From: an uncultured Lentisphaeria bacterium
GTDB taxonomy: Bacteria; Fidelibacterota; UBA8477; JABMPR01
Direction: 5' to 3'
DNA length: 64,000 nt
Assembly: GCA_964454335.1 (NCBI GenBank)
Contig: CAYVVT010000001.1
Span: 432,083-496,082, forward strand
This document shows, piece by piece, positions 3,134 through 31,520 of this stretch; position 1 is the stretch's first letter; every line of letters begins with the position of its first letter. The position numbers were made by a program, and so were the translations under genes. Below the pieces are notes generated by a model that made no database searches, had not been told where the DNA came from, and saw nothing but the letters and a program-made list of their open reading frames with translations.

Positions 3134-4405
3134 ATGAGTACCGGCAACCAGACCCAATTGGCACAATGGCAAAAGAAAATGTTCTGGATGATGTGGATAA
3201 CATATGCCGCCTTCTATCTAGGGCGGGTAAATATATCGGTGGCCATGCCTGGCATCGCCGAGGAATTCGGTTTAACGAAAACAAACCTGGGAGTTATTTT
3301 AAGCGCCTTGTTTGCAATGTATGCTATCGGACAGTTTATCAATGGACAGTTGGGCGATAAACTTAATTCCCGGTTAATTATAACTGTTGGACTGCTTACA
3401 TCGGCAATATTGAATGTCTTTATGGGACTCACAGGCGGCATTATCGGTCTGATGGTGGTGGTCTGGGGTCTCAATGGATATTTCCAATCGATGGGCTGGG
3501 GCCCGACAGTGAAAGCTATCGCTAATTGGTTTCCTGGTGGTATTCGGGGAAAGATCTCGGGGCGACTAGGAACCAGTTATATCATTGGTGGAGCTCTGTC
3601 CTGGTTGCTGGCCGGTACAATCATCAAGTATCTTGACTGGCGTGCCACTTTCTGGGTACCAGCGCTGATCATGGCTGTTATTGCTATTCATTGGTATCTC
3701 CGAGCCCGAAATGCACCAGAGGAAATCGGTTTACCCACAGTCGAAGAACAGGAACAGGGCATCGCCCGGACCGAAATCCAGGCCGACGAACATATTGGAT
3801 TTCGAAGAACACTGAAAATAACGCTTAGCAATCCCTATATCTGGTTTGCGGCCTTTGGTTTGTTCGGACTGAATATTGTCCGCTATGGCTTCATGAGCTG
3901 GGCGCCGACATATATGTTTGAAGAACAAGGAGCAACCATCTCCATGGCGGCTTATAAAGCAATTGCTTTTCCAGTAGCCGGTGGTCTTGGCGCTATTCTG
4001 GCCGGCTGGGCTTCCGATAAACTGTTCCAGAATCGACGCGCACCGGTTGCTTTTGTAATGCTGATTGCGTTAGCGGTTTTGTGTTATCTGTATCGGATCG
4101 TGCCTGGTGATAATTGGATCATAAGCCTGATCATCCTGCTGTTTATTGGCTTTTTCACATTTGGTCCTCATATACTGATCGTGGCCGCCTTGCCAGCAGA
4201 TCTGGGGTCACGTAAAGCCGCCTCTTCGGTCACCGGATTCATCGATGCCATGGGTTATGCCGGTGCCAGTATTACCGGAGTTGGAACCGGTTATCTGATC
4301 GATAGGTTCAGCTGGGATGCCGCCTTTAATTTTTGGATCTTAGGCGCTATCATGGCAGCTGGAATGATGATATTTGTCTGGAAACATGAACTTAAAAGAG
4401 TTTAG
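3134..4405 (+). CDS. MFS transporter of the organophosphate:Pi antiporter (GlpT/UhpC-like) family.
   Basis: YLGRVNISVAMP is a GlpT/UhpT-type N-terminal motif; the protein has 12 TM-like segments; a strong AAGGAG RBS lies upstream. Confidence 0.8.
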   Translation: MSTGNQTQLAQWQKKMFWMMWITYAAFYLGRVNISVAMPGIAEEFGLTKTNLGVILSALFAMYAIGQFINGQLGDKLNSRLIITVGLLTSAILNVFMGLTGGIIGLMVVVWGLNGYFQSMGWGPTVKAIANWFPGGIRGKISGRLGTSYIIGGALSWLLAGTIIKYLDWRATFWVPALIMAVIAIHWYLRARNAPEEIGLPTVEEQEQGIARTEIQADEHIGFRRTLKITLSNPYIWFAAFGLFGLNIVRYGFMSWAPTYMFEEQGATISMAAYKAIAFPVAGGLGAILAGWASDKLFQNRRAPVAFVMLIALAVLCYLYRIVPGDNWIISLIILLFIGFFTFGPHILIVAALPADLGSRKAASSVTGFIDAMGYAGASITGVGTGYLIDRFSWDAAFNFWILGAIMAAGMMIFVWKHELKRV

Positions 4406-5477
4406 TAAAGGACTTAATCAATTGAGAAAAGTAAGCATGCTGGTCAGTGTATTCTGTTTGAACCTGGGCCTGGTGGAAACACTCTCAGCCCAAGCCACCT
4501 TCCAGTTTACGATTCAATCCTGGGGTACATATACAACTTATGACAGATATGAATTGAATGCAGACTCATCAGCCCTGGTATTGGATGAAACGACCACACA
4601 ATTGGGTGCTGGAATTCGCAGAGCTCGCCTGAGAGGCAAAATGACCAAAGGCAAGGTCGACGCATTTATTCAGTATGATGCACTCTCTGCATACGTGGTG
4701 GACGCCCAGATAGATTATAATTTCAATGACAATTTTAAAATGAGACTGGGGCGCTTTGTAGGCGCCGGCAGCCAAGCAGGAGGGCACACATCCCATACAG
4801 CCATTGATTTTGCTGAAAGATCAATGGTCGGTAGATTGTGGGCCAGTGCAGTGAGCCGTTCAGATTATAGAACTTACGGGATGGCTGTAATTGGAAAATT
4901 CAACAACCTCAACTACCAGATATTGGCTCAAAATGGTGATGGTTCATTAAACCTCAAGCCGTATGGTACATCATCAAGTCACTCGGATGAGGATACTGGC
5001 AGCATTCCGCAGTTGGATTTTGCAGTGTCAACAGCCATTGGGGATGCGATAAATATCGGTCTGCACTATGGCTTACCAAATGCGGATCGTGTTAATGTCT
5101 CTTCGGCAACCGGGTTCTTATATTTTAAACCGAACAATTACGCCAAAGGGAAATTCAGAGGAAAGTTTGATTTTGCACAGGTAGTGAATCATGCAAGCGA
5201 CCAGGCAGCCACCTCCCTGGGATGGGGTGTGGGTTGTTTTTATAGATTGTCATCAAACATGGAATTGGGAGCTGGTTTTCAACAGTGGGATCCAAGTACA
5301 GATACAGAAAATGATGCTTTCGGTAATATCCTGATCGGTGCTACATACTCGCCTGATCCGGATCAATGGAAAGACTCTCTATTTAAATTGATTGCTACTT
5401 TCAAAACATCTGAAGTTGAAAATGAACCACTCGATCCACTGGTGATCCATCTTGTATGGCAAGCATATATGCATTAA
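4386..5477 (+). CDS. Outer-membrane porin-like beta-barrel protein, possibly a phosphate/anion-selective porin.
   Basis: It has a signal peptide (MNLKEFSKGLNQLRKVSMLVSVFCLNLGLVETLSAQA), alternating amphipathic beta-strand character and an aromatic C-terminus. Confidence 0.45.
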   Translation: MNLKEFSKGLNQLRKVSMLVSVFCLNLGLVETLSAQATFQFTIQSWGTYTTYDRYELNADSSALVLDETTTQLGAGIRRARLRGKMTKGKVDAFIQYDALSAYVVDAQIDYNFNDNFKMRLGRFVGAGSQAGGHTSHTAIDFAERSMVGRLWASAVSRSDYRTYGMAVIGKFNNLNYQILAQNGDGSLNLKPYGTSSSHSDEDTGSIPQLDFAVSTAIGDAINIGLHYGLPNADRVNVSSATGFLYFKPNNYAKGKFRGKFDFAQVVNHASDQAATSLGWGVGCFYRLSSNMELGAGFQQWDPSTDTENDAFGNILIGATYSPDPDQWKDSLFKLIATFKTSEVENEPLDPLVIHLVWQAYMH

Positions 5478-5673: not shown

Positions 5674-6249
5674 ATGGGACCTTTCAACTGCCCTGAATGC
5701 AAACAATCCCTGGACCAGAAGAAAATGTGGCAATCCCGCTACAAGTGCCCGGAATGCTCCGCAGATCTGAGTGAGTTATTCGTCGAGGAATCCATTCTTA
5801 CACCTCCCTACGATTGGGACAAGGTGGATGCCGGAGAACACTCCATCCTGAAGTCAGAGTTGGAGCAGAAAGAGACAGAGCCGGAGGTAGACACTGGAAT
5901 CATCTCTGCCGTGAAGGCGAAACGTCCGTGGACGGATCCCTGGGTTCTGGGCAGAACCATTCCTGTCGCCCTGCTGATCCTGGCTGTTCTGAATATGCCG
6001 CCCTGGTATTACTATCCTGTTCTACGTGTTGTCGTATCCCTTACAGCAGCGGTGGCAGCCTATATCTCACTGGTCACCGGACTGGTAAGACCCATGATCG
6101 TGTGGGGGGTCCTGGCAATCTTTTACAATCCGATCTCACCCATTTTCATCTTCACCAGGCAGACCTGGGTATTCATCCACCTGGTCTCGGCGATCCTGTT
6201 CATGTTCCTGCCTTACAACGGTTCTTCTGCTAGTCTGAAACGGCAGTAA
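5674..6249 (+). CDS. Hypothetical membrane protein with an N-terminal zinc ribbon (CPEC...CPEC) and 3-4 C-terminal TM helices.
   Basis: Two CxxC pairs at the N-terminus are followed by hydrophobic segments; there is no recognisable family. Confidence 0.4.
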   Translation: MGPFNCPECKQSLDQKKMWQSRYKCPECSADLSELFVEESILTPPYDWDKVDAGEHSILKSELEQKETEPEVDTGIISAVKAKRPWTDPWVLGRTIPVALLILAVLNMPPWYYYPVLRVVVSLTAAVAAYISLVTGLVRPMIVWGVLAIFYNPISPIFIFTRQTWVFIHLVSAILFMFLPYNGSSASLKRQ

Positions 6250-10177: not shown

Positions 10178-10590
10178 ATCCAGTTTCAAATTTCAAACGT
10201 CGGGTTGACGAACGTGGAGTGGTCGGCAATCCATACACGTCAGTAAAACCACGACCCGTCTCATCCCTTCTTTTTGAGGGATCAAAAAGAAGCACCCGCC
10301 TTCGCTTGCAGCTCCGGCGTGGCACGAAAAATCCTCCATTTCAGTTTTACCAGGGAAGCATCTGGGGCTGTTAATCAGCTTTGTTGCGGCAGAATTGAAA
10401 CTCGCTCGTTTCACTCCCTCAGACAACAATTCTGCTGCTTGCTCCCTTCGCTGATACAGCCATCCATCTGCTTCCCAAGGAGGTATTCGATGTTGAGTGC
10501 CAGGGCGCTAAGACGAGTGTAGCCCTCAGTCATTGCGAGGAGGGCAGAACTCACGGTTGGAGTTCTGAATGACGTGGCAATCTCCTCAGC
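10178..10590. repeat. Structured intergenic repeat unit, copy R1.
   Basis: It shares the head motif (cagtttcaaatttcaaac), the hairpin cttctttttg...caaaaagaag, the core ...cagggaagcatctggggctgttaatcagc...gcggcagaattgaaactcgctcg...cagacaacaattctgctgc...cttcccaag and the tail ...gttgagtgccagggcgctaag...cagtcattgcgag with the other copies. Confidence 0.8.
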
Positions 10591-10778
10591 AAACCTCGCG
10601 TATGTTGGTTAGTCCAGAAACCCGTCAAACCACCGGACAAGCATCGTTAATTCACCCTCGTTTGCTCATCAGTAGCTGTAATGCTAACTTATAGGCGTTC
10701 CCACTGGAGCTTCCTGCTGTAACCATTCTCACTCATTCTCAAAGCTGTACGATGACAAAGCATTGCAGGGGGATTGAT

Positions 10779-11819
10779 ATGTTCGATCTATCGAGACGCA
10801 AGTTCATCAAGTCCGGCTTCTATGCCGTCATGGGTAGTATGCTGTCGGTTTTCAGTTCGACGGGCTGCAGTATGCTGGGGAAGGGGAGGAAAGACTTCGT
10901 ACCCGGTTACCTGGAATTGCACAGCAGCGGGGAGCTAAAGAAGCGGGGCGATATGCTCTGGGAGATGATGGAGACCTGTGAGCTGTGTCCGCGACTCTGC
11001 GGGGTGAACAAGCTCAAGGGCGAAAAGGGATTCTGTGAGGCCAACGATAAACTGGAGATCACGGCCCATCATCCCCACTTTGGGGAAGAGCGGCCGTTGG
11101 TGGGTGTCGGTGGCAGCGGGACGATCTTCCTGACGAACTGCGGTCTACGCTGCGTCTTCTGCATCAACTGGGAGATCAGCCAGGGTGGTGTCGGCATGAA
11201 GGAGAGCCTCGAGAGATGCGCCGATATGATGCTGGAACTCCAGGACCGGGGTTGTCCCAACATCAATTTCGTCACACCCACGCACTATTCAGCGCATATC
11301 GTCAAGGCCGTGGATATTGCTGCGAGCAAAGGGCTGAATGTTCCGCTGGTTTGGAATACCTGTGGCTGGGAACGGGTGGTGATCCTGCAGATCCTGGACG
11401 GGATCGTCGATATCTATCTGCCGGATTTCAAGTATTCCGATAACGAGAGTGCCATCAAGTATTCATCCGGATCGGCAAGCTATGTCGAAGATACACAGCA
11501 GGCGCTGCTGGAGATGAACCGCCAGGTGGGAGTTGCCAAACCTGGACTCTTTGGGTTGATGCAGAGGGGTCTGATGATCCGGCATCTGGTAATGCCCAAC
11601 GATGTCAGCGGGACCAAGGGCGTCATCGACTGGATCGCGGAAAATCTGCCCAAGGATACCTATTTCAATCTGATGTCCCAGTACCGGCCCATGTACAAGG
11701 CGGCTGAGTATCCCAAGATCTCCCGGAGGCTTACCCGGGAGGAGTATGCCGAGGCGGTTAGATGGGTTAAGGAGGCCGGGTTGACGAATGTGGATATCCA
11801 GGGGATGAGTTTCTTCTAG
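10779..11819 (+). CDS. Radical SAM enzyme (AmmeMemoRadiSam / PFL-activase-like) with an N-terminal twin-arginine lipoprotein-like signal.
   Basis: CELCPRLCGVNKLKGEKGFC followed by NCGLRCVFCINWEISQ (CxxxCxxC); N-terminus MFDLSRRKFIKSGFYAVMGSMLSVFSSTGCS. Confidence 0.8.
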   Translation: MFDLSRRKFIKSGFYAVMGSMLSVFSSTGCSMLGKGRKDFVPGYLELHSSGELKKRGDMLWEMMETCELCPRLCGVNKLKGEKGFCEANDKLEITAHHPHFGEERPLVGVGGSGTIFLTNCGLRCVFCINWEISQGGVGMKESLERCADMMLELQDRGCPNINFVTPTHYSAHIVKAVDIAASKGLNVPLVWNTCGWERVVILQILDGIVDIYLPDFKYSDNESAIKYSSGSASYVEDTQQALLEMNRQVGVAKPGLFGLMQRGLMIRHLVMPNDVSGTKGVIDWIAENLPKDTYFNLMSQYRPMYKAAEYPKISRRLTREEYAEAVRWVKEAGLTNVDIQGMSFF

Positions 11820-11844
11820 AGTACCGATTTTACCAAGAACACAA

Positions 11845-12294
11845 TTTTCCAATTTCAAGTTTCAAACTTTGGATTGACCAACTGGATGTGGTTGGTAATC
11901 CATATTCGATGGTTCGCTGAGGAATTGGGATCCTTCTTCTTTTTGACGCGCCAAAAAGAAACAAAAAGCGTTTTTTTCTCACCTAACCAGGGAAGCATCT
12001 GGGGCTGTTATGCAGCTTAGTCGCGGCAGAATTGAAACTCGCTCGTTTCACTCCCTCAGACAACAATTCTGCTGCTCGCTCCCTTCGCTGATACAGCCAT
12101 CCATCTACTTCCCATGCGGGTATTCGATGTTGAGTGCCAGGGCGCTAAGGTGAGTGTAGCCCTCAGTCATTGCGAGCGCAGCGTGGCAATCTCGCCAGCG
12201 GACGACTTTGACACTTTGCGTTACGAGCAATGATCATCTGCCCAGGTCTGATCTCCAATTAACTCCAGCTCAACACAGTTCGATCAAATCCCGG
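11845..12294. repeat. Structured intergenic repeat unit, copy R2 (a full unit of about 450 bp, in tandem with R3).
   Basis: Over 85% identical to R1, R3 and R5 across head, hairpins, core and tail. Confidence 0.85.
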
Positions 12295-12295
12295 G

Positions 12296-12645
12296 ATTTC
12301 AAATTTCCAGTTTCTAGTTTCGAACTTTGGTTTGACTAACGTGGTATGCTTTGCAGCCCATATTCGATGGTTCGCTGAGGGATTGGGTTCCTTCTTCTTT
12401 TTGACGCGCCAAAAAGAAGCAAAAAGCGCTTTTTCTCACCTAACCAGGGAAGCATCTGGGGCTGTTAATCAGCTTAGTCGCGGCAGAATTGAAACTCGCT
12501 CGTTTCACTCCCTCAGACAACAATTCTGCTGCTCGCTCCCTTCGCTGATACAGCCATCCATCTGCTTCCCAAGCAGGCATTCGTTGTTGAGTGCCAGGGC
12601 ACTAAGACGAGTGTATCTCTCGGTCATTGTAATGCGGCCATAAAT
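12296..12645. repeat. Structured intergenic repeat unit, copy R3 (tandem, with a truncated tail).
   Basis: Near-identical to the R2 core; directly abuts R2. Confidence 0.85.
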
Positions 12646-12923
12646 GCCAGCGGCATATATGGCCAACGAAGCAACCCTCTCCGAATAGAGCTGTTCTATG
12701 GCAATGTTTTAAAAGATCCGACCCGGGAACTGCCATACTTAATGATCGGCCCCTACGCGAACACATCGATCAGACCAAACAAATTTCAATTTCACACATC
12801 CTCATTCTGGAATCCCCTCCCGCCTGCTGCAGGATCCAATCTTCTCCTAAAATCACGTTTTTCCCCAGCCCCCATGCTCTAACTTATTCTAAAGTATTCA
12901 ACTCATTGGTATCGGGGGATAGT

Positions 12924-16475: not shown

Positions 16476-16631
16476 AGTGGAAGTACGCCAGCAAGTAAGC
16501 CAGGTTTATGTTGATCTTTAAATGATACAGAGCCAGGAATTCACATCCAGATCACCTGCGATTTGAATTCTGCTAGATAATCCCTTATCTTCCAGTTCGT
16601 TACGTTGGATTTGAGCTTCGGCAGGGTATTG

Positions 16632-17072
16632 ATGTATAACGGGCTTGGTCACCAGTCTCCCCCCGCTTCCCGGCGCTTCTCGCCGGCCTTTTCCCTCGTG
16701 GAATTGATGATCGTCATCGTGATCATGGGCATTCTCGCGGCTATCGCTATTCCCGTTTACTATGACAATGTCGACCGGGCCATTCTGGCCGAATCCGATG
16801 CAGCTATGGGTTCCATACGTAATTATCTCGTGGTCTACTATGGGACGAACGGTATGTATTCCATTCAGCTATTCGATGCCTATGTCATTGGGAAGAGCTG
16901 GAACGAGATCAAACCCGGTGAACTCAACGGGCAGTTCTTCCGGGACTCGTCCTTCTACTATTACTGCTGGGATGGGATCAATTATTTCCTCATCGCTCAG
17001 AAAGGTCAGCCGAATCCTCTCTGGCGGACGCTGGATCAGAATGGGGATTTCGAGAGTTGGCCCAACCTGTGA
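16632..17072 (+). CDS. Prepilin-type N-terminal cleavage/methylation domain protein (type IV pilin or T2SS pseudopilin-like), paralog 1.
   Basis: AFSLVELMIVIVIMGILAAIAIPVY is a class III signal and pilin helix. Confidence 0.65.
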   Translation: MYNGLGHQSPPASRRFSPAFSLVELMIVIVIMGILAAIAIPVYYDNVDRAILAESDAAMGSIRNYLVVYYGTNGMYSIQLFDAYVIGKSWNEIKPGELNGQFFRDSSFYYYCWDGINYFLIAQKGQPNPLWRTLDQNGDFESWPNL

Positions 17073-17156: not shown

Positions 17157-17337
17157 CCATATTCGATGTTGAGTGCCAGGGCACTAAGACTAGTTTAGCC
17201 CTCAGTCATTGCCAGCACAGCGTGGCAATCTCGCCAACGGACCACTCTGACACTTTGCATTACGAACAATGCCCACCTACCCAGGTCTGATCCAAGAATC
17301 ACTCCTGATCAACACGTTTCGATCAAAGCGCATGTTC
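17157..17337. repeat. Structured repeat, tail fragment R4.
   Basis: It matches the tail of R2 (gttgagtgccagggcactaag...gcgtggcaatctcgcca...gttcgatcaaa). Confidence 0.75.
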
Positions 17338-17675
17338 TCAAATTTCCAGTTTCAAGTTTCCAACATTGGTTTGACCAACTGGAAGTGGTTGGCAATCCAT
17401 ATTCGATGGTTCGCTGAGGAATTGGGATCCTTCTTCTTTTTGACGCGCCTAAAAGAAGCATATAGCGCTTTTTTCTCACCTAACCGGGGAAGCATCTGGG
17501 GCTGTTAATCAGCTTTGTCGCGGCAGAATTAAAACTCGCTCGGCGAAGGTCGCGCCGGAGTTAGAAGAACGAAGCCGGACGGCTCGCTCAGACAGCAATT
17601 CCGCTAGTCACTCACATCTTTGAATCATCCGTATAGATACTTCCCAAGTATGCCGCTATGTTTTGCACCAGGACG
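17338..17675. repeat. Structured repeat unit R5 (head plus core, with a roughly 35-nt insertion expanding the central hairpin).
   Basis: Head caaatttccagtttcaagtttc, hairpin ttcttctttttgacgcgcctaaaagaag, core with an inserted ggcgaaggtcgcgccggagttagaagaacgaagccgg. Confidence 0.8.
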
Positions 17676-22699: not shown

Positions 22700-22945
22700 G
22701 GTTAGTGACTGCAGCTCCGTTTAACATGTTGTTACTTTTTGAGGGAGCAAAAAGTAACCAAAAACTCCTTTCTTTACGCACATACTGGAAAGCATCTGTC
22801 GTCTGGTATTCAACTTGTTCGCTGTGGAATCGAAACTCGCTCACATGCGTTCGCTCAGACAGTGATTCCACTATTCGCTCACTGCGTTGAACCAGACTGG
22901 ACAGATACTTCCCAAGTAGGTATGCCACGTATCGCACCAGGACAA
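22700..22945. repeat. Structured repeat unit R6, a divergent copy showing compensatory stem changes.
   Basis: Hairpin gttactttttgagggagcaaaaagtaac against cttctttttg...caaaaagaag in other copies; stem gtggaatcg...cagtgattccac against gcagaattg...caattctgc. Confidence 0.75.
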
Positions 22946-22976: not shown

Positions 22977-25328
22977 TTATGTGAGCGGCCAGAAGATGGG
23001 GAGCAGGAACAGAGAGATCAGCAGCAGCAGGAGGACCAGGGGAAGGCCCACCTTTGTGTAGTCGGTGAAGCGATATCCACCAAGACCCATGACCAGGAGG
23101 TTGACCGGGTGACCCACGGGACTGAGGAAGGCACTTGAGGCGCCCAGAGCGACAACCATGAGCAGCGCATGAGGCGAGTAGGACATCTCCAGGGCCGTGC
23201 TCAGGGCAATGGGGGCCATGATGACGGCCACCACAGCGGTGGGCATGATCTGGGCTGCCAGGGCGGTGATGATGAAAATACCGGCGATGATGCCGAGTGG
23301 ACCGAGGAATTCGATGGATCCCAGGACGCTATGCGCAATGAGAGCGGTTGCGCCGGACTTCTGCATGGCCAGACCCACGCCCAGCATACTGGCGATGAGA
23401 AAGATTGCCTTCCACTCGATGGCACGATAGAAATCCTCCATTGTGAGGCAGCGCGTGAGAACCATCAAGGCTGCACCCACAGGTGCGGCGATGTAGATGG
23501 GCAGCAGTCCAAACCCTACCGTGGCAAGGACACTCAATTCAATACCGGCGGCAATAGGGGCTTTGGGTTTGTCATAGATCTCTTCCTGCATACCGGTAAG
23601 CACCAGGAAGTCCTGGTCCTCGTGAAGTTCTGCCAGATCCTCCCTGGCCCCATAGACCAGGAGGGCATCCCCGGGTTGCAGGACCATGTCACGCAGCGCT
23701 GTGCGATAAGCCCGATCCTGACGCCAGATGGCCAGTACCGTCAGGCCATATTCTTCACGGAAATCGAGTTCGCCGATGGTTTTTCCCAGTACCGACGTGC
23801 GGGGCGCCAGGATGATCTCGGCGACCCCCACTTCATCAGATTCGAGCCGATCCAGGTCCTCCTCACGCTGGTCTTCCAGAATGAGTTCCTGGAGTCCGGC
23901 CAGAATGTCCAGGTTCTGTGGTTGGCCCAGAACGATGAAGATATCATTCTCCTCGAGAACGAAATCAATTCCCGGTATGAAAATGACCTCATTTCCACGG
24001 GCGATGCCCAGGACATTGATCCCCAGGGCGTCCTTGAGATGGCTTTCACCAAGATTCTTGCCCACCAGGGCAGATCCTTCCGGGATGGCGATCCCCATGA
24101 TCTGCCGGTGCAGCTTGTACTTGAAGGCCACGTCCCGGGGTGAAAGACGCTGGAAGTCAGTGAACTGACCCTCTTCGGCCAGAGCCTCGATCTTGTCATC
24201 GAATCCCATGGCCACCAGGACATCGTCCTCGTGGAGACGGTATTCGCGGAGTTTGGACCATTTGACATGATCCTCACGCTGGATGGCCAGGATGTTCACA
24301 TTGAAATCCCGGCGGAAACCGGCTTCGATGAGGGTGCGTCCCAAAAGGGGTGAGAGTGCTTTTACCTTGATCTCGGCAAATGAGAGTGAGCGTGCGATCA
24401 GATGTTCACTGAGAAGGAAACCGCGTTTCAGCTCCAGGTGTTTCCAATTCCGCAGGGTCTCCAATTGCTCCACCCGGCCTTCCACCAGCAGTTTGTCGCC
24501 TTCCTGCAGTTCGGAATTGGGTCCTGGTGCCAGCATTGACTTCTCACGCCGAATAATAGCAAGAACGTTGAACCCGATGGCTGATCCCAGACGGCTTTCC
24601 GCCAGGTTCTTGCCGGTGAGCGGGGATCCTTCAGGGATGGTAAGTGTCTGCAGCCGAGCCTGGAGCTCATACTGACGTTTCATGATGTCAGCGAGACTGG
24701 TATCACGGTCAACAGGTTTATGTGGCAGCAGACGCTTGCCCAGGGTCACCATGTAAAGGATTCCCAGGCTCAGGACCACCAGGCCAAGCGGGGTAAAGTC
24801 AAAAATATTGTAGGGACGAAACCCGGCATCCTGCAGAGTGCCGCTGATGAGCAGGTTTGGAGCGGTTCCGATGAGGGTCGTCAGGCCTCCCAGCAGAGAA
24901 GCAAAAGCCAGGGGGATCAATAGCCGGGATGGTGAATTCTTGGTGGCATGCGCGATGCTGATGACCACCGGCAGAAGCAGTGCAGCCACACCGATGTTGT
25001 TCATGATCCCTGAGAACAATCCTACAGTGACCATGATAACCACCATGAGGCGGCCTTCATTCTTACCGGCCAGTTTGAGGATCTGTTGTCCTACGATCTG
25101 TGCCACACCGGTTCGCACCAGACCAGCACTGAGAACAAGAACCGCGGCTATAGTCACTACGGCATGATTGCTGAAACCAGCCAGGGCTTCGTCATGGGTG
25201 ATGATCCCGAATACAGCCAGGATCAGCAGGGCACTGAAGGCTACCAGGTCCACCCGCAGCCATTCCGTCACAAAGAAGAGTACCGCTGCTGCAAGCGTTG
25301 CCAGGACGAATATGATAGAGACTGTCAT
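22977..25328 (-). CDS. SLC13/DASS-family permease with four central TrkA-C (RCK_C) domains.
   Basis: N- and C-terminal polytopic membrane halves flank repeated roughly 70-aa TrkA-C-like blocks (e.g. ...GDKLLVEGRVEQLE...). Confidence 0.8.
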   Translation of the reverse strand: MTVSIIFVLATLAAAVLFFVTEWLRVDLVAFSALLILAVFGIITHDEALAGFSNHAVVTIAAVLVLSAGLVRTGVAQIVGQQILKLAGKNEGRLMVVIMVTVGLFSGIMNNIGVAALLLPVVISIAHATKNSPSRLLIPLAFASLLGGLTTLIGTAPNLLISGTLQDAGFRPYNIFDFTPLGLVVLSLGILYMVTLGKRLLPHKPVDRDTSLADIMKRQYELQARLQTLTIPEGSPLTGKNLAESRLGSAIGFNVLAIIRREKSMLAPGPNSELQEGDKLLVEGRVEQLETLRNWKHLELKRGFLLSEHLIARSLSFAEIKVKALSPLLGRTLIEAGFRRDFNVNILAIQREDHVKWSKLREYRLHEDDVLVAMGFDDKIEALAEEGQFTDFQRLSPRDVAFKYKLHRQIMGIAIPEGSALVGKNLGESHLKDALGINVLGIARGNEVIFIPGIDFVLEENDIFIVLGQPQNLDILAGLQELILEDQREEDLDRLESDEVGVAEIILAPRTSVLGKTIGELDFREEYGLTVLAIWRQDRAYRTALRDMVLQPGDALLVYGAREDLAELHEDQDFLVLTGMQEEIYDKPKAPIAAGIELSVLATVGFGLLPIYIAAPVGAALMVLTRCLTMEDFYRAIEWKAIFLIASMLGVGLAMQKSGATALIAHSVLGSIEFLGPLGIIAGIFIITALAAQIMPTAVVAVIMAPIALSTALEMSYSPHALLMVVALGASSAFLSPVGHPVNLLVMGLGGYRFTDYTKVGLPLVLLLLLISLFLLPIFWPLT

Positions 25329-25379: not shown

Positions 25380-25945
25380 TCAAGGGTTGGCACCGGGGGT
25401 GCAGGATAGTAAACCGGATCAACACCTCAATGTTGTGGTTTGTATATGTATCATTTTCTCCCTTCATTTTGAAGCGGCAAAAAGAAGCAAAAACCGCCTT
25501 CTCAGGGTTAATCCTTTCCAAGCAGGTATTCGTTGCCAAAATCCAGGACGTTCAAGCCTCAATCGAGAAGATTGCCTGAGAATTCCCCAAGCGGGGCTTT
25601 GTTCTGAGGGGTCGACACTTCAGTGTTGTGGTTTGATTATGTATCGGTTAAACCCTTCTTTTTGAAGGATCGAAAAGAAGTTAAAAATCCTTTTGCGCCA
25701 GAGATCGGATTGTGACTGTCACCGTTCATTCCGCCATGAAGCTGAAACTCGCCCTACCGGGCTTCAAACAACAGCTTCATTTCCGCTCCAATTCACGGGA
25801 CAGTCATGCTATCCGCTTTCGATTGCGCTTACCGAGCAGGTTCTCTATGCAAAGCATCAGGACTTATGAACTCCTTTGTCATTTCGAGAAAGCCAGAACT
25901 CCCTGTAGGGATTCTGGATGACGAAGCAACCTGCTAAGTGTCCCA
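25380..25945. repeat. Structured repeat region R7: a duplicated head hairpin, then a core and tail with compensatory substitutions.
   Basis: There are two acacNtcaNtgttgtggtttg...ttcNttttg...aaaagaag sub-units. Stem tgaagctgAAACTCGC...AAACAACAgcttca corresponds to gcagaattgAAACTCGC...CAGACAACAattctgc elsewhere. The tail is homologous to the R1 tail. Confidence 0.7.
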
Positions 25946-26042: not shown

Positions 26043-26474
26043 ATGGACTCAGCTTTTGGTAAGAACCATTCTACGCAATCTGCCTTTTCCCTGGTAGAGC
26101 TGATGATCGTCATCGTGATCATTGGTCTTCTGGCGGCTATCGCGGTACCTGTGTATAACAAGAATGTGGAACACGCCATTCGGGCTGAGGGGGAGGCCGC
26201 ACTGGGATCGATCCGCACGCAGGTACTGGTGTATTATGGTGAACACGGTCACTTTCCAGTGGAAGATCTGTCACGGGTGGTAACCCAGAGCTGGCACAGC
26301 ATCAAAGAGGGCGAACTAGATGGACGCTACTTCTCAGAATCGTCCTATTACTACCAGTGTTTTGACGGTGTCGACTATCTCATCGGTCTGCATCGTGGAG
26401 AAGTCATGGAACTGCACCGCTCGCTGAACCAGGATGGCCAATACGAGAACTGGGACCTTAGTGTGGATGAGTAG
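26043..26474 (+). CDS. Prepilin-type N-terminal cleavage/methylation domain protein, paralog 2.
   Basis: QSAFSLVELMIVIVIIGLLAAIAVPVY; roughly 45% identical to the 16632..17072 product. Confidence 0.65.
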   Translation: MDSAFGKNHSTQSAFSLVELMIVIVIIGLLAAIAVPVYNKNVEHAIRAEGEAALGSIRTQVLVYYGEHGHFPVEDLSRVVTQSWHSIKEGELDGRYFSESSYYYQCFDGVDYLIGLHRGEVMELHRSLNQDGQYENWDLSVDE

Positions 26475-31284: not shown

Positions 31285-31520
31285 TGTGAATCAGTACTTC
31301 TTTTTGATGCGCCAAAAAGAAGCAAAAGGCGCTCTTCTACAATTGACCAGGAAAGCATCTGGTGCAATCAATCAACTCATTCGCGGTAGAATTGAAACTC
31401 ACCCCGGTAGTACCGGGGCTCAGACAACAATTCTGCTTCCCGCTCACTCATTGTTGACGCCCTCCGGCTGCTTCCCAAGCAGGTTTGTTTTGTTGAATGC
31501 CGGGGTGGAGATCCGGGAGG
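31285..31520. repeat. Structured repeat unit R8, a core copy with an alternative central hairpin.
   Basis: cttctttttgatgcgccaaaaagaag, then ...gcggtagaattgaaactcaccccggtagtaccggggctcagacaacaattctgc..., ending cttcccaagcagg. Confidence 0.75.

Follow-up and report, generated by a model that had tools for sequence, protein, structure and literature searches.

The 64,000-nt stretch of DNA analyzed here (hereafter the window; contig CAYVVT010000001.1, positions 432,083 to 496,082, from assembly GCA_964454335.1 of an uncultured member of Candidatus Marinimicrobia) raises the question of what the structured repeats in its intergenic regions are: genes for a noncoding RNA (ncRNA), mobile DNA, recombination sites, or inert duplicates. 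The reading that we favor, with a probability of roughly one half, is that the units constitute a nonautonomous mosaic of hairpin-forming intergenic repeats, akin to bacterial interspersed mosaic elements (BIMEs) and repetitive extragenic palindromes (REPs), with a new core module and probably mobilized in trans. A first-pass annotation had proposed an intergenic repeat family at this locus, and that proposal is confirmed, as the motifs it quoted lie at or within a few bases of where it had placed them, far above chance. Seven copies carry a rod-shaped core of ~130 nt (c1, 10350-10480; c2, 11987-12117; c3, 12444-12574; c4, 17484-17649; c5, 22784-22917; c6b, 25698-25824; c7, 31347-31480), and to these are added one coreless copy (c6a) and one tail-only copy. 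Copies c1 to c4 are mutually 90-95% identical and c5 and c7 ~70-76%, while c6b is recognized by a covariance model only. Self-BLAST aligns c2 with c3 (331 nt, 90%, E 3e-127), the c1 with the c2 core (191 nt, 94%, E 4e-82), c7 with c3 (210 nt, 76%, E 3e-37) and c5 with c2 (191 nt, 69%, E 5e-11), a repeat-finding program returns the same families, and a 23-base gapped core pattern occurs five times in the window vs. 0.00 expected from shuffles. The six independent loci all share one orientation (plus, as first written) whatever the direction of the flanking genes, and the flanking DNA is unrelated between them. The units are noncoding: stops and shifts of frame are placed differently from copy to copy, every reading frame has stops in some copy, the frame left open in c1, c3 and c7 shifts register across the variable hairpin, and no third-codon-position excess of substitutions was found in the units, which together rule out a protein-coding reading.

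In all copies the core is a rod: above a foot helix (GGGAAGCA/UGCUUCCC) come interrupted helices, two or three in number, then an apical helix and a junction, the last with conserved unpaired blocks on either side of a hairpin that varies in both length and sequence. On the minus strand this conserved junction reads 5'-YGTCTGAG-(variable hairpin)-GAGTTTC-3', and the 3' foot CAGATGCTTCC is likewise conserved. In a 17-sequence core alignment, which was fitted to the covariance model, standard pairs occupy 89.1% of cells vs. 71.4% in shuffles and 33-49% with slid partners; none of 500 shuffles reaches the observed scores, changes on both sides are seen in 26 of the 39 core pairs, and the apical helix retains 97% pairing with such double changes in eight of its nine pairs. 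An unfitted MAFFT alignment of six window copies gives 90.6% pairing and nine pairs with double changes. Together, these data demonstrate that the core helices are maintained by compensatory changes beyond the shuffle and slid-partner controls. It is important to note that such compensatory changes, although expected of a structured ncRNA, would be produced by a DNA hairpin just as well. An alternative hairpin, which excludes the foot helix, can form when the 3' strand of that helix pairs with the bases that follow it (12561-12577, 22903-22920 and 31466-31483), as CTGCTT-CCC-AAGCAG or, through a compensatory change in c4 and c5, as TACTT-CCC-AAGTA.

At the gathering threshold Rfam 15 has no match anywhere in the window or in seven Comamonadaceae loci that carry related copies (see below), and at E<=10 the window and Comamonadaceae copies return only 13-18-bit noise; the window units match no Rfam 15 family, and the core is an undescribed module. 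Ribozyme, kink-turn and CRISPR-repeat readings of its GAAAC and CUGAG blocks were considered by eye and dropped, the CUGANGA/GAAA core of the hammerhead being absent and the bulge and stem geometry not fitting a kink-turn.

The two strands of the core do not fold equally well. The first-pass annotation had described the element on the plus strand, and that orientation is not supported, as the core folds better on the opposite strand, which also carries the wobble pairs and is probably the active one. RNA minimum free energy is lower on the minus strand in 13 of 14 elements (-129.6 vs. -108.6 kcal/mol in the Polaromonas copy L002, -55.1 vs. -44.6 in the c2 core, -60.0 vs. -52.8 in the c3 core and -60.3 vs. 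-48.3 in c5), and DNA minimum free energy in all eight comparisons (-29.2 vs. -27.9 kcal/mol in the c1 core, whose better-folding strand carries TGTCTGAG...GAGTTTC). Read on the minus strand, G·U cells number 32 vs. 19 for A·C, and GGGAAGTA, in the foot of c2, c4 and c5, makes a U·G pair there that would be an A·C mismatch on the plus strand.

The core is also found beyond this genome. Its pattern matches ten loci among GTDB species genomes, in Polaromonas, Comamonadaceae and other betaproteobacterial metagenome-assembled genomes (MAGs), the source species not being among the matches; these loci hold the blocks AAGCATCTG, GAAACTC and CTCAGACA in a ~200-nt rod of the same layout. A covariance model, R1, built from six window cores only, scores c1, c2, c3, c5 and c7 at 150, 149, 157, 128 and 114 bits, respectively, and detects c6b at 39.4 bits (E 3e-6) though that copy was left out of model building and has an entirely compensatory core stem (ATGAAGCTG/CAGCTTCAT). 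The same model scores the Polaromonas and Comamonadaceae copies at 23-33 bits and recovers about 12 of them. Since R1 finds two further copies on a betaproteobacterial MAG contig (L006) that lack the search pattern, while none of ~14 chance pattern matches scores, the similarity of the cores exceeds the search pattern itself. The Comamonadaceae copies are multicopy and have no conserved neighbor gene, being found next to UbiD, PrpD, an FAD oxidase, a Zn peptidase, ISL3, APH, LemA and a RelE-like gene. Their apical hairpins are mostly C-GNA-G triloops (GCA, GAA or GTA), with a GAG-C(GNA)G-CGA kernel at the core apex after a TGTC tag, and several copies stand ~25 nt behind a terminator-like hairpin on the better-folding strand.

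On L006 three rods lie within 8 kb (1507-1613, 3188-3305 and 5155-5262) in mixed orientations, separated by small genes that include a RelE-like one. Some of the Polaromonas copies (L018, L002 and L004) are adjoined by TGGCAC-N5-CTGC beside the rod (the CTGGCACGCGCACTGCT region), which resembles a σ54 -24/-12 promoter on the worse-folding strand, and a GCTAC-N7-GTAGC hairpin follows several of them. The Polaromonas JS666 genome paper is cited for MITEs (miniature inverted-repeat transposable elements) in a review of these; our literature search for Polaromonas together with an RNA motif found no linking paper.

Searched in ~85 kb from four related Marinimicrobia (L028 and L030-L035; permease at 61-68% protein identity), the core gave no copy. 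Its presence in Comamonadaceae and absence from related Marinimicrobia and from the flanks of the window amount to the patchy distribution expected of mobile DNA. BLASTN of both element types against PLSDB plasmids found no match, metagenome and viral contigs yielded only chance, coding matches to the core pattern, and all 123 viral-contig matches to an apex-only pattern were set aside as chance, having neither flanking stem nor foot motif.

These comparisons bear on a rival explanation for the family, namely that its copies are inert products of a recent local segmental duplication of one intergenic locus, without function or mobility. The copies are indeed confined to 21 kb (10-32 kb) of the window, with none in the other 60 kb examined, including the 17 kb flanking the window; c1 to c4 are, as stated, 90-95% identical, and two paralogous pilin-like genes adjoin copies. 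But identity falls from 95% to ~50% while pairing is kept through double changes, the surroundings differ at each locus, modules occur independently of one another, and another phylum has related copies. Local duplication, the least credible of the readings considered here, is largely refuted by the covariation together with these cross-phylum relatives.

The first-pass annotation had regarded each repeat as a single element, a view that motif mapping overturns: a unit comprises at least four separable modules, and the units are mosaics of these modules in differing combinations. Their order is heptad array, hairpin A, hairpin B, in some units a palindrome, core, short hairpin, and REP palindrome. 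The head consists of two to four (A/G)TTTCNA heptads, a (GTTTCAA)n array; hairpin B is A/T-rich (CTTCTTTTTG-N6-CAAAAAGAAG); the short hairpin 3' of the core reads AGTGCC-AG-GGCACT; and the tail palindrome reads GTCATTGCGAG...GCAATC. Hairpin B, first described as part of each full unit, is present in all eight units (eight sites), whereas the palindrome AAAAAGCGCTTTTT, which had been counted as part of each full unit, occurs in only three. The minimal unit common to the seven core-bearing copies is hairpin B plus core, ~215 nt, and is all there is of c5 and c7, while c6a (with hairpin B) and 17160-17327 (a tail) both lack the core. The window contains exactly seven occurrences of the 9-mer TATTCGATG vs. 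~0.5 expected (for a 9-mer in 128 kb), and six of the seven sites are module junctions, before the hairpin-B/core block and before the tail block alike, such that a unit is equally readable as alternating blocks that each start after the 9-mer.

All units are given on the plus strand, and the core rods of c1 to c3 on the minus strand, the better-folding one. The full unit c1 (10178-10590) has its heptads at 10183-10196, hairpin B at 10267-10292, the junction TATTCGATG behind the core at 10484-10492, the short hairpin (AGTGCC/GGCGCT) at 10496-10509 and a REP with a long inserted hairpin at 10529-10582. The full unit c2 (11845-12294) has heptads at 11852-11865, hairpin A at about 11873-11902, TATTCGATG at 11903-11911 and again, behind the core, at 12121-12129, hairpin B at 11936-11961, the palindrome at 11963-11976, the short hairpin at 12133-12146 and a canonical REP at 12166-12191, followed by a spacer. 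In tandem with it, c3 begins at 12296 as had been annotated, but extends beyond the end first assigned to it (12645) to about 12675; it has four heptads (12296-12323), TATTCGATG (12361-12369), hairpin B (12394-12419), the palindrome (12421-12434), the short hairpin (12590-12603) and a REP variant, GTCATTGTAAT-(hairpin)-GAAGCAACC, at about 12617-12672. The c2/c3 tandem (window 11820-12906) recurs in the independent assembly 3300009374 (L038, 18700-19790), and assembly 3300009332 (L001, 1890-2540) holds a single chimeric unit, with the 5' part of c2 and the 3' part of c3, which is either a recombination variant or an assembly collapse.

Two other stretches were rightly recognized as repeats, yet neither is the single unit that had been supposed. 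The first, 17157-17675, divides into a tail-only fragment (17160-17327, 84.5% identical over 168 nt to the c2 tail by self-BLAST), which comprises TATTCGATG (17160-17168), the short hairpin (17172-17185), a REP (17205-17230) and a spacer, and which abuts the head of c4 (17338-17675). The latter has heptads at 17342-17362, TATTCGATG at 17400-17408, hairpin B at 17433-17458, a palindrome variant at 17460-17473 and a core whose apical hairpin is ~35 nt longer, and is without a canonical tail. The second, 25380-25945, resolves into c6a (25416-25560), whose hairpin B (25462-25487) is fused straight to post-core sequence (CTTTCCAAGCAGGTATTCGTTG), and the very diverged full unit c6b (25609-25940), with hairpin B at 25655-25680 and a TGTC-tagged REP variant at 25878-25931. 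The two minimal units each lie between two minus-strand genes: c5 (22732-22945) with a hairpin B variant at 22732-22757 (TTACTTTTTG/CAAAAAGTAA), and c7 (31295-31510) with hairpin B at 31297-31322 and an apical hairpin of CCCCGG/CCGGGG.

The recurrence of one 9-mer before both the core and the tail module raises the possibility that the modules mark the borders of cassettes or serve a site-specific recombinase as its sites, much like integron attC sites or clusters of these that lack an integrase, with crossover at TATTCGATG|(G)TT; such a crossover would explain both the tandem units and the module shuffling. The GTTGAGT that follows TATTCGATG fits GTTRRRY, the core is an imperfect palindrome acting on this view as a folded single-strand substrate with the strand asymmetry typical of attC, the window copies share one orientation as within an attC array, and the three L006 copies with small genes between them, one RelE-like, point the same way. 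The L006 copies are not all in one orientation, however, and in the window the copies are separated by large housekeeping genes of both strands rather than by cassettes, with no integrase in ~81 kb. Moreover, attC sites conserve the foot (RYYYAAC/GTTRRRY) and vary in the center, whereas here the apex is conserved and the foot is GGGAAGCA/TGCTTCCC, and the units exceed attC sites in size and complexity. We therefore regard a recombination-site function as very improbable.

The identity of the tail provides a connection to known repeats. The c2 tail, GTCATTGCGAG-CGCAGCG-TGGCAATC, matches a widespread palindrome of viral contigs, which in the form GTCATTGCGAG-N(4-34)-AAGCAATC is present at at least 120 viral-contig loci with at least 180 matches, up to six per contig (L054-L173). 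Among the matches listed, the palindromes are often arranged as inverted pairs or tandem arrays (e.g., L069, L094 and L104), their middles are mostly CGAAGCG, CGCAGCG, CGTAGCG, CGGAGCG or a longer hairpin, and the GCAATCtc ending is common. A literature text search for GTCATTGCGAG retrieved only primers. REPs of the CGTC superfamily, to which dRS3 of Neisseria and RPE-4/6 of Rickettsia belong, are palindromes of 20-40 bp with an unpaired CGTC, TGTC or CCTC tag, a stem starting with A-T/T-A, a loop of 4-5 nt and a CCA tail; they occur mostly as head-to-head dimers and are distributed over several phyla (Di Nocera et al. 2013, PMC3733652). In the window the tail is a short palindrome that starts with AT (ATTGC...GCAAT at 12169-12190, 17208-17229 and 10532-10581), all five tail REP copies in the ~81 kb read lie within units, and the tail REP faces the core apex head-to-head. 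Its tag is AGTC in c1, c2 and the 17160 copy, GGTC in c3 and TGTC in c6b (25877). In place of the 4-5-nt loop there is a 30-40-nt center hairpin in c1, c3 and c6b and CGCAGCG in c2, and in place of the CCA tail there is CTC.

The statement that the units resemble no known REP or BIME is consequently not supported, as the tail is a CGTC-superfamily REP palindrome and the whole arrangement a BIME-like mosaic; REPs nested in longer palindromes and mosaic intergenic regions are both documented (PMC3733652, section 7). Rather than being unlike known repeats, the units are a BIME/REP-like mosaic, in which the new part is the core rod together with its occurrence in two phyla. With the CGTC superfamily they share the AT-starting tail stem, the TGTC tag of c6b, the head-to-head arrangement, the lack of an attached transposase and, in the Comamonadaceae core apex, the TGTC tag with the GAG-C(GNA)G-CGA kernel; they depart from it in the AGTC tag of three window copies, the CTC rather than CCA tail, the often long central hairpin and the ~130-nt core, which is not a REP but bears its tag inside a long rod along with a second conserved block, CAGATGCTTCC. 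The palindrome hosting the CGTC-1 REP dimer of Halothiobacillus neapolitanus (GGGaaGCTT-GAAAaACC--...--GGTaTTTCgAAGC-gCCC) likewise places a REP-like hairpin at its tip and begins its foot with GGGAAGC, but only these first seven bases agree with the core, and the likeness is a lead taken from the published text (PMC3733652, section 7).

Among other repeat classes, the BIMEs of E. coli and the mosaic intergenic regions of Neisseria (mixes of dRS3, Correia and other repeats) resemble the units in their intergenic position, their palindromic modules in variable order, their tandem and partial units and the opposite orientation of neighboring palindromes, although the modules and their sequences differ. 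BIMEs are known to bind integration host factor or gyrase. Similarly, REPINs, the REP doublets mobilized by RAYTs (REP-associated tyrosine transposases), are long hairpin-forming nonautonomous repeats thought to move in trans as single-stranded DNA; in these the REP arms are conserved and the apex varies, whereas in our core the apex and foot are conserved and the arms covary, and no RAYT is encoded in the DNA examined. Finally, MITEs and the Correia, ERIC, BOX and RUP families are 100-500 bp long, noncoding, multicopy and rod-folding as well, BOX being also modular (boxA-boxB-boxC), and the core ends in an 8-bp inverted repeat, GGGAAGCA/TGCTTCCC. Unlike in MITEs, there is neither a target-site duplication nor, in the ~81 kb read, a parent insertion sequence, only the core is shared across the two phyla, and the bases outside the core ends (ACCA... 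and ...AAGCAGG) are conserved between copies rather than duplicated. Of the earlier suggestion of a new structured ncRNA or MITE-like family, what stands is that the units are noncoding, structured with compensatory changes, without an Rfam match and restricted to certain lineages.

The ncRNA half of that suggestion deserves separate consideration. On this account the core would be a new structured ncRNA gene, or part of one, on the minus strand of the window, multicopy as some small-RNA families are, with the apical junction and the CAGAUGCUUCC foot binding a protein or target and the other modules serving as promoter, terminator or passenger repeats. Strong covariation around conserved unpaired junction nucleotides, tandem G·A-type junctions, the concentration of G·U pairs on one strand, an apical hairpin of variable length (in c4, c7 and c6b) and conservation between two phyla are all consistent with such a gene, which in view of the Rfam result would be new, and c5 and c7 are placed immediately behind minus-strand genes and in the sense orientation. 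The genomic context, on the other hand, is inconsistent: the minus strand of c1 to c4 is antisense to all flanking genes, while c5 and c7 occupy a 3' untranslated position. A scan for σ70 promoters and intrinsic terminators yielded no more than shuffles do and brought up no conserved one, and several Comamonadaceae copies instead follow a terminator-like hairpin on that strand. There is no conserved neighboring gene, a functional RNA gene would seldom be missing from related species as the core is, the tandem, truncated and core-deleted copies resemble selfish repeats in their behavior, and C-GNA-G triloops are typical of stable DNA minihairpins, not of RNA. We accordingly consider an ncRNA gene possible but doubtful.

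We propose instead that the core is a nonautonomous mobile module that works in the form of a folded single strand, of DNA more likely than of RNA. A factor encoded elsewhere, such as a Y1 HUH enzyme of the RAYT-like kind, would recognize the conserved junction and foot, and the module would enter intergenic DNA always on the same strand, spreading locally and now and then by horizontal transfer; recombination between modules could then yield the tandem and chimeric units, and any effects on the host, such as transcript termination or stabilization between genes, would be secondary. C-GNA-G triloops form exceptionally stable DNA minihairpins. We favor DNA because there is no consistent transcriptional setting or conserved promoter or terminator, because the six independent loci share an orientation whatever the direction of the flanking genes, because the Comamonadaceae C-GNA-G apices with their TGTC tag and flanking GAG/CGA make up the same kernel as the center of the tail's CGTC REP, and because that REP and the core apex stand head-to-head, the usual arrangement of CGTC REP dimers (PMC3733652).

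Several observations weigh against mobilized DNA. Strand asymmetry and covariation suit RNA equally well, and the window core copies are without GNA triloops. For the whole 365-nt unit the folding z-score ranks the plus strand above the minus (-5.3 vs. -2.7), a reversal presumably due to the unit's other hairpins. No mobilizing gene is found in ~81 kb of the genome, neither an empty site nor a target-site duplication was seen, and the mobility of the units is inferred from their distribution. The core greatly exceeds every described REP in length and elaboration, and the AGTC tag of c1, c2 and the 17160 copy differs from CGTC, TGTC and CCTC. The weak GC skew of the window, if trusted, places the better-folding strand as the leading-strand template, which runs counter to what is expected of IS200/IS605-type single-strand transposition; the signal is too weak and we dropped the replication-strand argument. 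CGTC REPs, in turn, have no dedicated transposase known (PMC3733652).

Going further, the ~130-nt rod could tentatively be viewed as a folded single-strand element of a new class (DNA or RNA) that Marinimicrobia and Comamonadaceae share through horizontal transfer and that serves a trans-acting enzyme as its substrate or guide. This enzyme might be the mobilization system that CGTC-type REPs are missing, or the rod might be linked to the gene cassettes of four-helix-bundle proteins (23S rRNA IVS/Avd-like), whose heptad flanks form the head of the unit. The broader proposition, that the core is either the substrate of an unrecognized enzyme system or a genuine ncRNA class, we likewise hold as a possibility on the unlikely side.

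The heptads lead to such a gene within the window. What had been listed as head-only copies of the repeat at 50849 (minus) and 51390 (plus) are in fact the inverted flanks of a 23S_rRNA_IVP four-helix-bundle (Avd-like) gene (50965-51291, minus strand, within 50849-51420; Pfam E 1.6e-23), the N-terminus of which is interrupted by a stop at codon 5. The flanking arrays (50856-50869, minus, and 51397-51417, plus) bear the same motif as the head of c1 to c4, and inverted GTTTCAA-type arrays also flank homologous genes in a Marinimicrobia MAG (L039, 2820-3400) and in L294 (430-950), where an Mnh/Mrp antiporter operon encloses the gene as though by insertion, which makes three lineages with such flanks. 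No heptads surround the close homolog in L053, and viral contigs contain only distant Avd-like relatives (24-51% identity), useless for flank comparison. Such genes may travel as small cassettes.

Otherwise, the copies have ordinary genes for neighbors, which encode ABC exporters, a radical-SAM protein, an S8 peptidase carrying a type IX secretion sorting domain, a hybrid histidine kinase, an amidase, an SLC13/CitMHS permease, pilin-like proteins, GH57 and a YgjP-like protein. The best named homologs of the permease (22977-25328) are Marinimicrobia MAG proteins (59-64% identity), and the locus is reproduced in two JGI assemblies, 3300009332 and 3300009374. That no transposase lies nearby, as first stated, is borne out by all large window open reading frames and the gene calls of the 17-kb flanks (~81 kb in total), where neither transposase, integrase or reverse transcriptase domains nor a Y1_Tnp (RAYT-type) domain are found. 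The two paralogous pilin-like genes (16605-17072 and 26043-26474; N_methyl motif; repeat family D7, 158 nt at 72%) each adjoin a repeat unit, with c4 downstream of the one and c6 upstream of the other. Cumulative GC skew shows a weak rise to ~44 kb and then falls; gene orientation is mostly plus up to near that point and mostly minus after it, possibly marking a replication-related switch. About 1 kb to the left of the window start, assembly 3300009374 (L038) carries a tRNA-Lys(CTT) at 5894-5967 whose 3' end is duplicated ~200 nt later (AGTCCCTGGCGGTGTACA; 5894-6180), as if an element had integrated into the tRNA gene and left a scar.

REP- and BIME-type repeats are common, and the CGTC superfamily among them is without a known transposase. 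Should the units be only a local selfish repeat, they would provide a useful annotation for Marinimicrobia genomes and nothing more. The link between heptad arrays and four-helix-bundle genes suggests that these very common orphan genes move as small cassettes. Here, the partner that a CGTC-type palindrome meets head-to-head is a larger hairpin module, as yet undescribed, which has the same kernel, occurs in two phyla and shows a clear strand asymmetry, and the sequence and structure model of this core can be used for genome scans, for searches for co-occurring enzymes, and for tests of whether it acts as DNA or as RNA.

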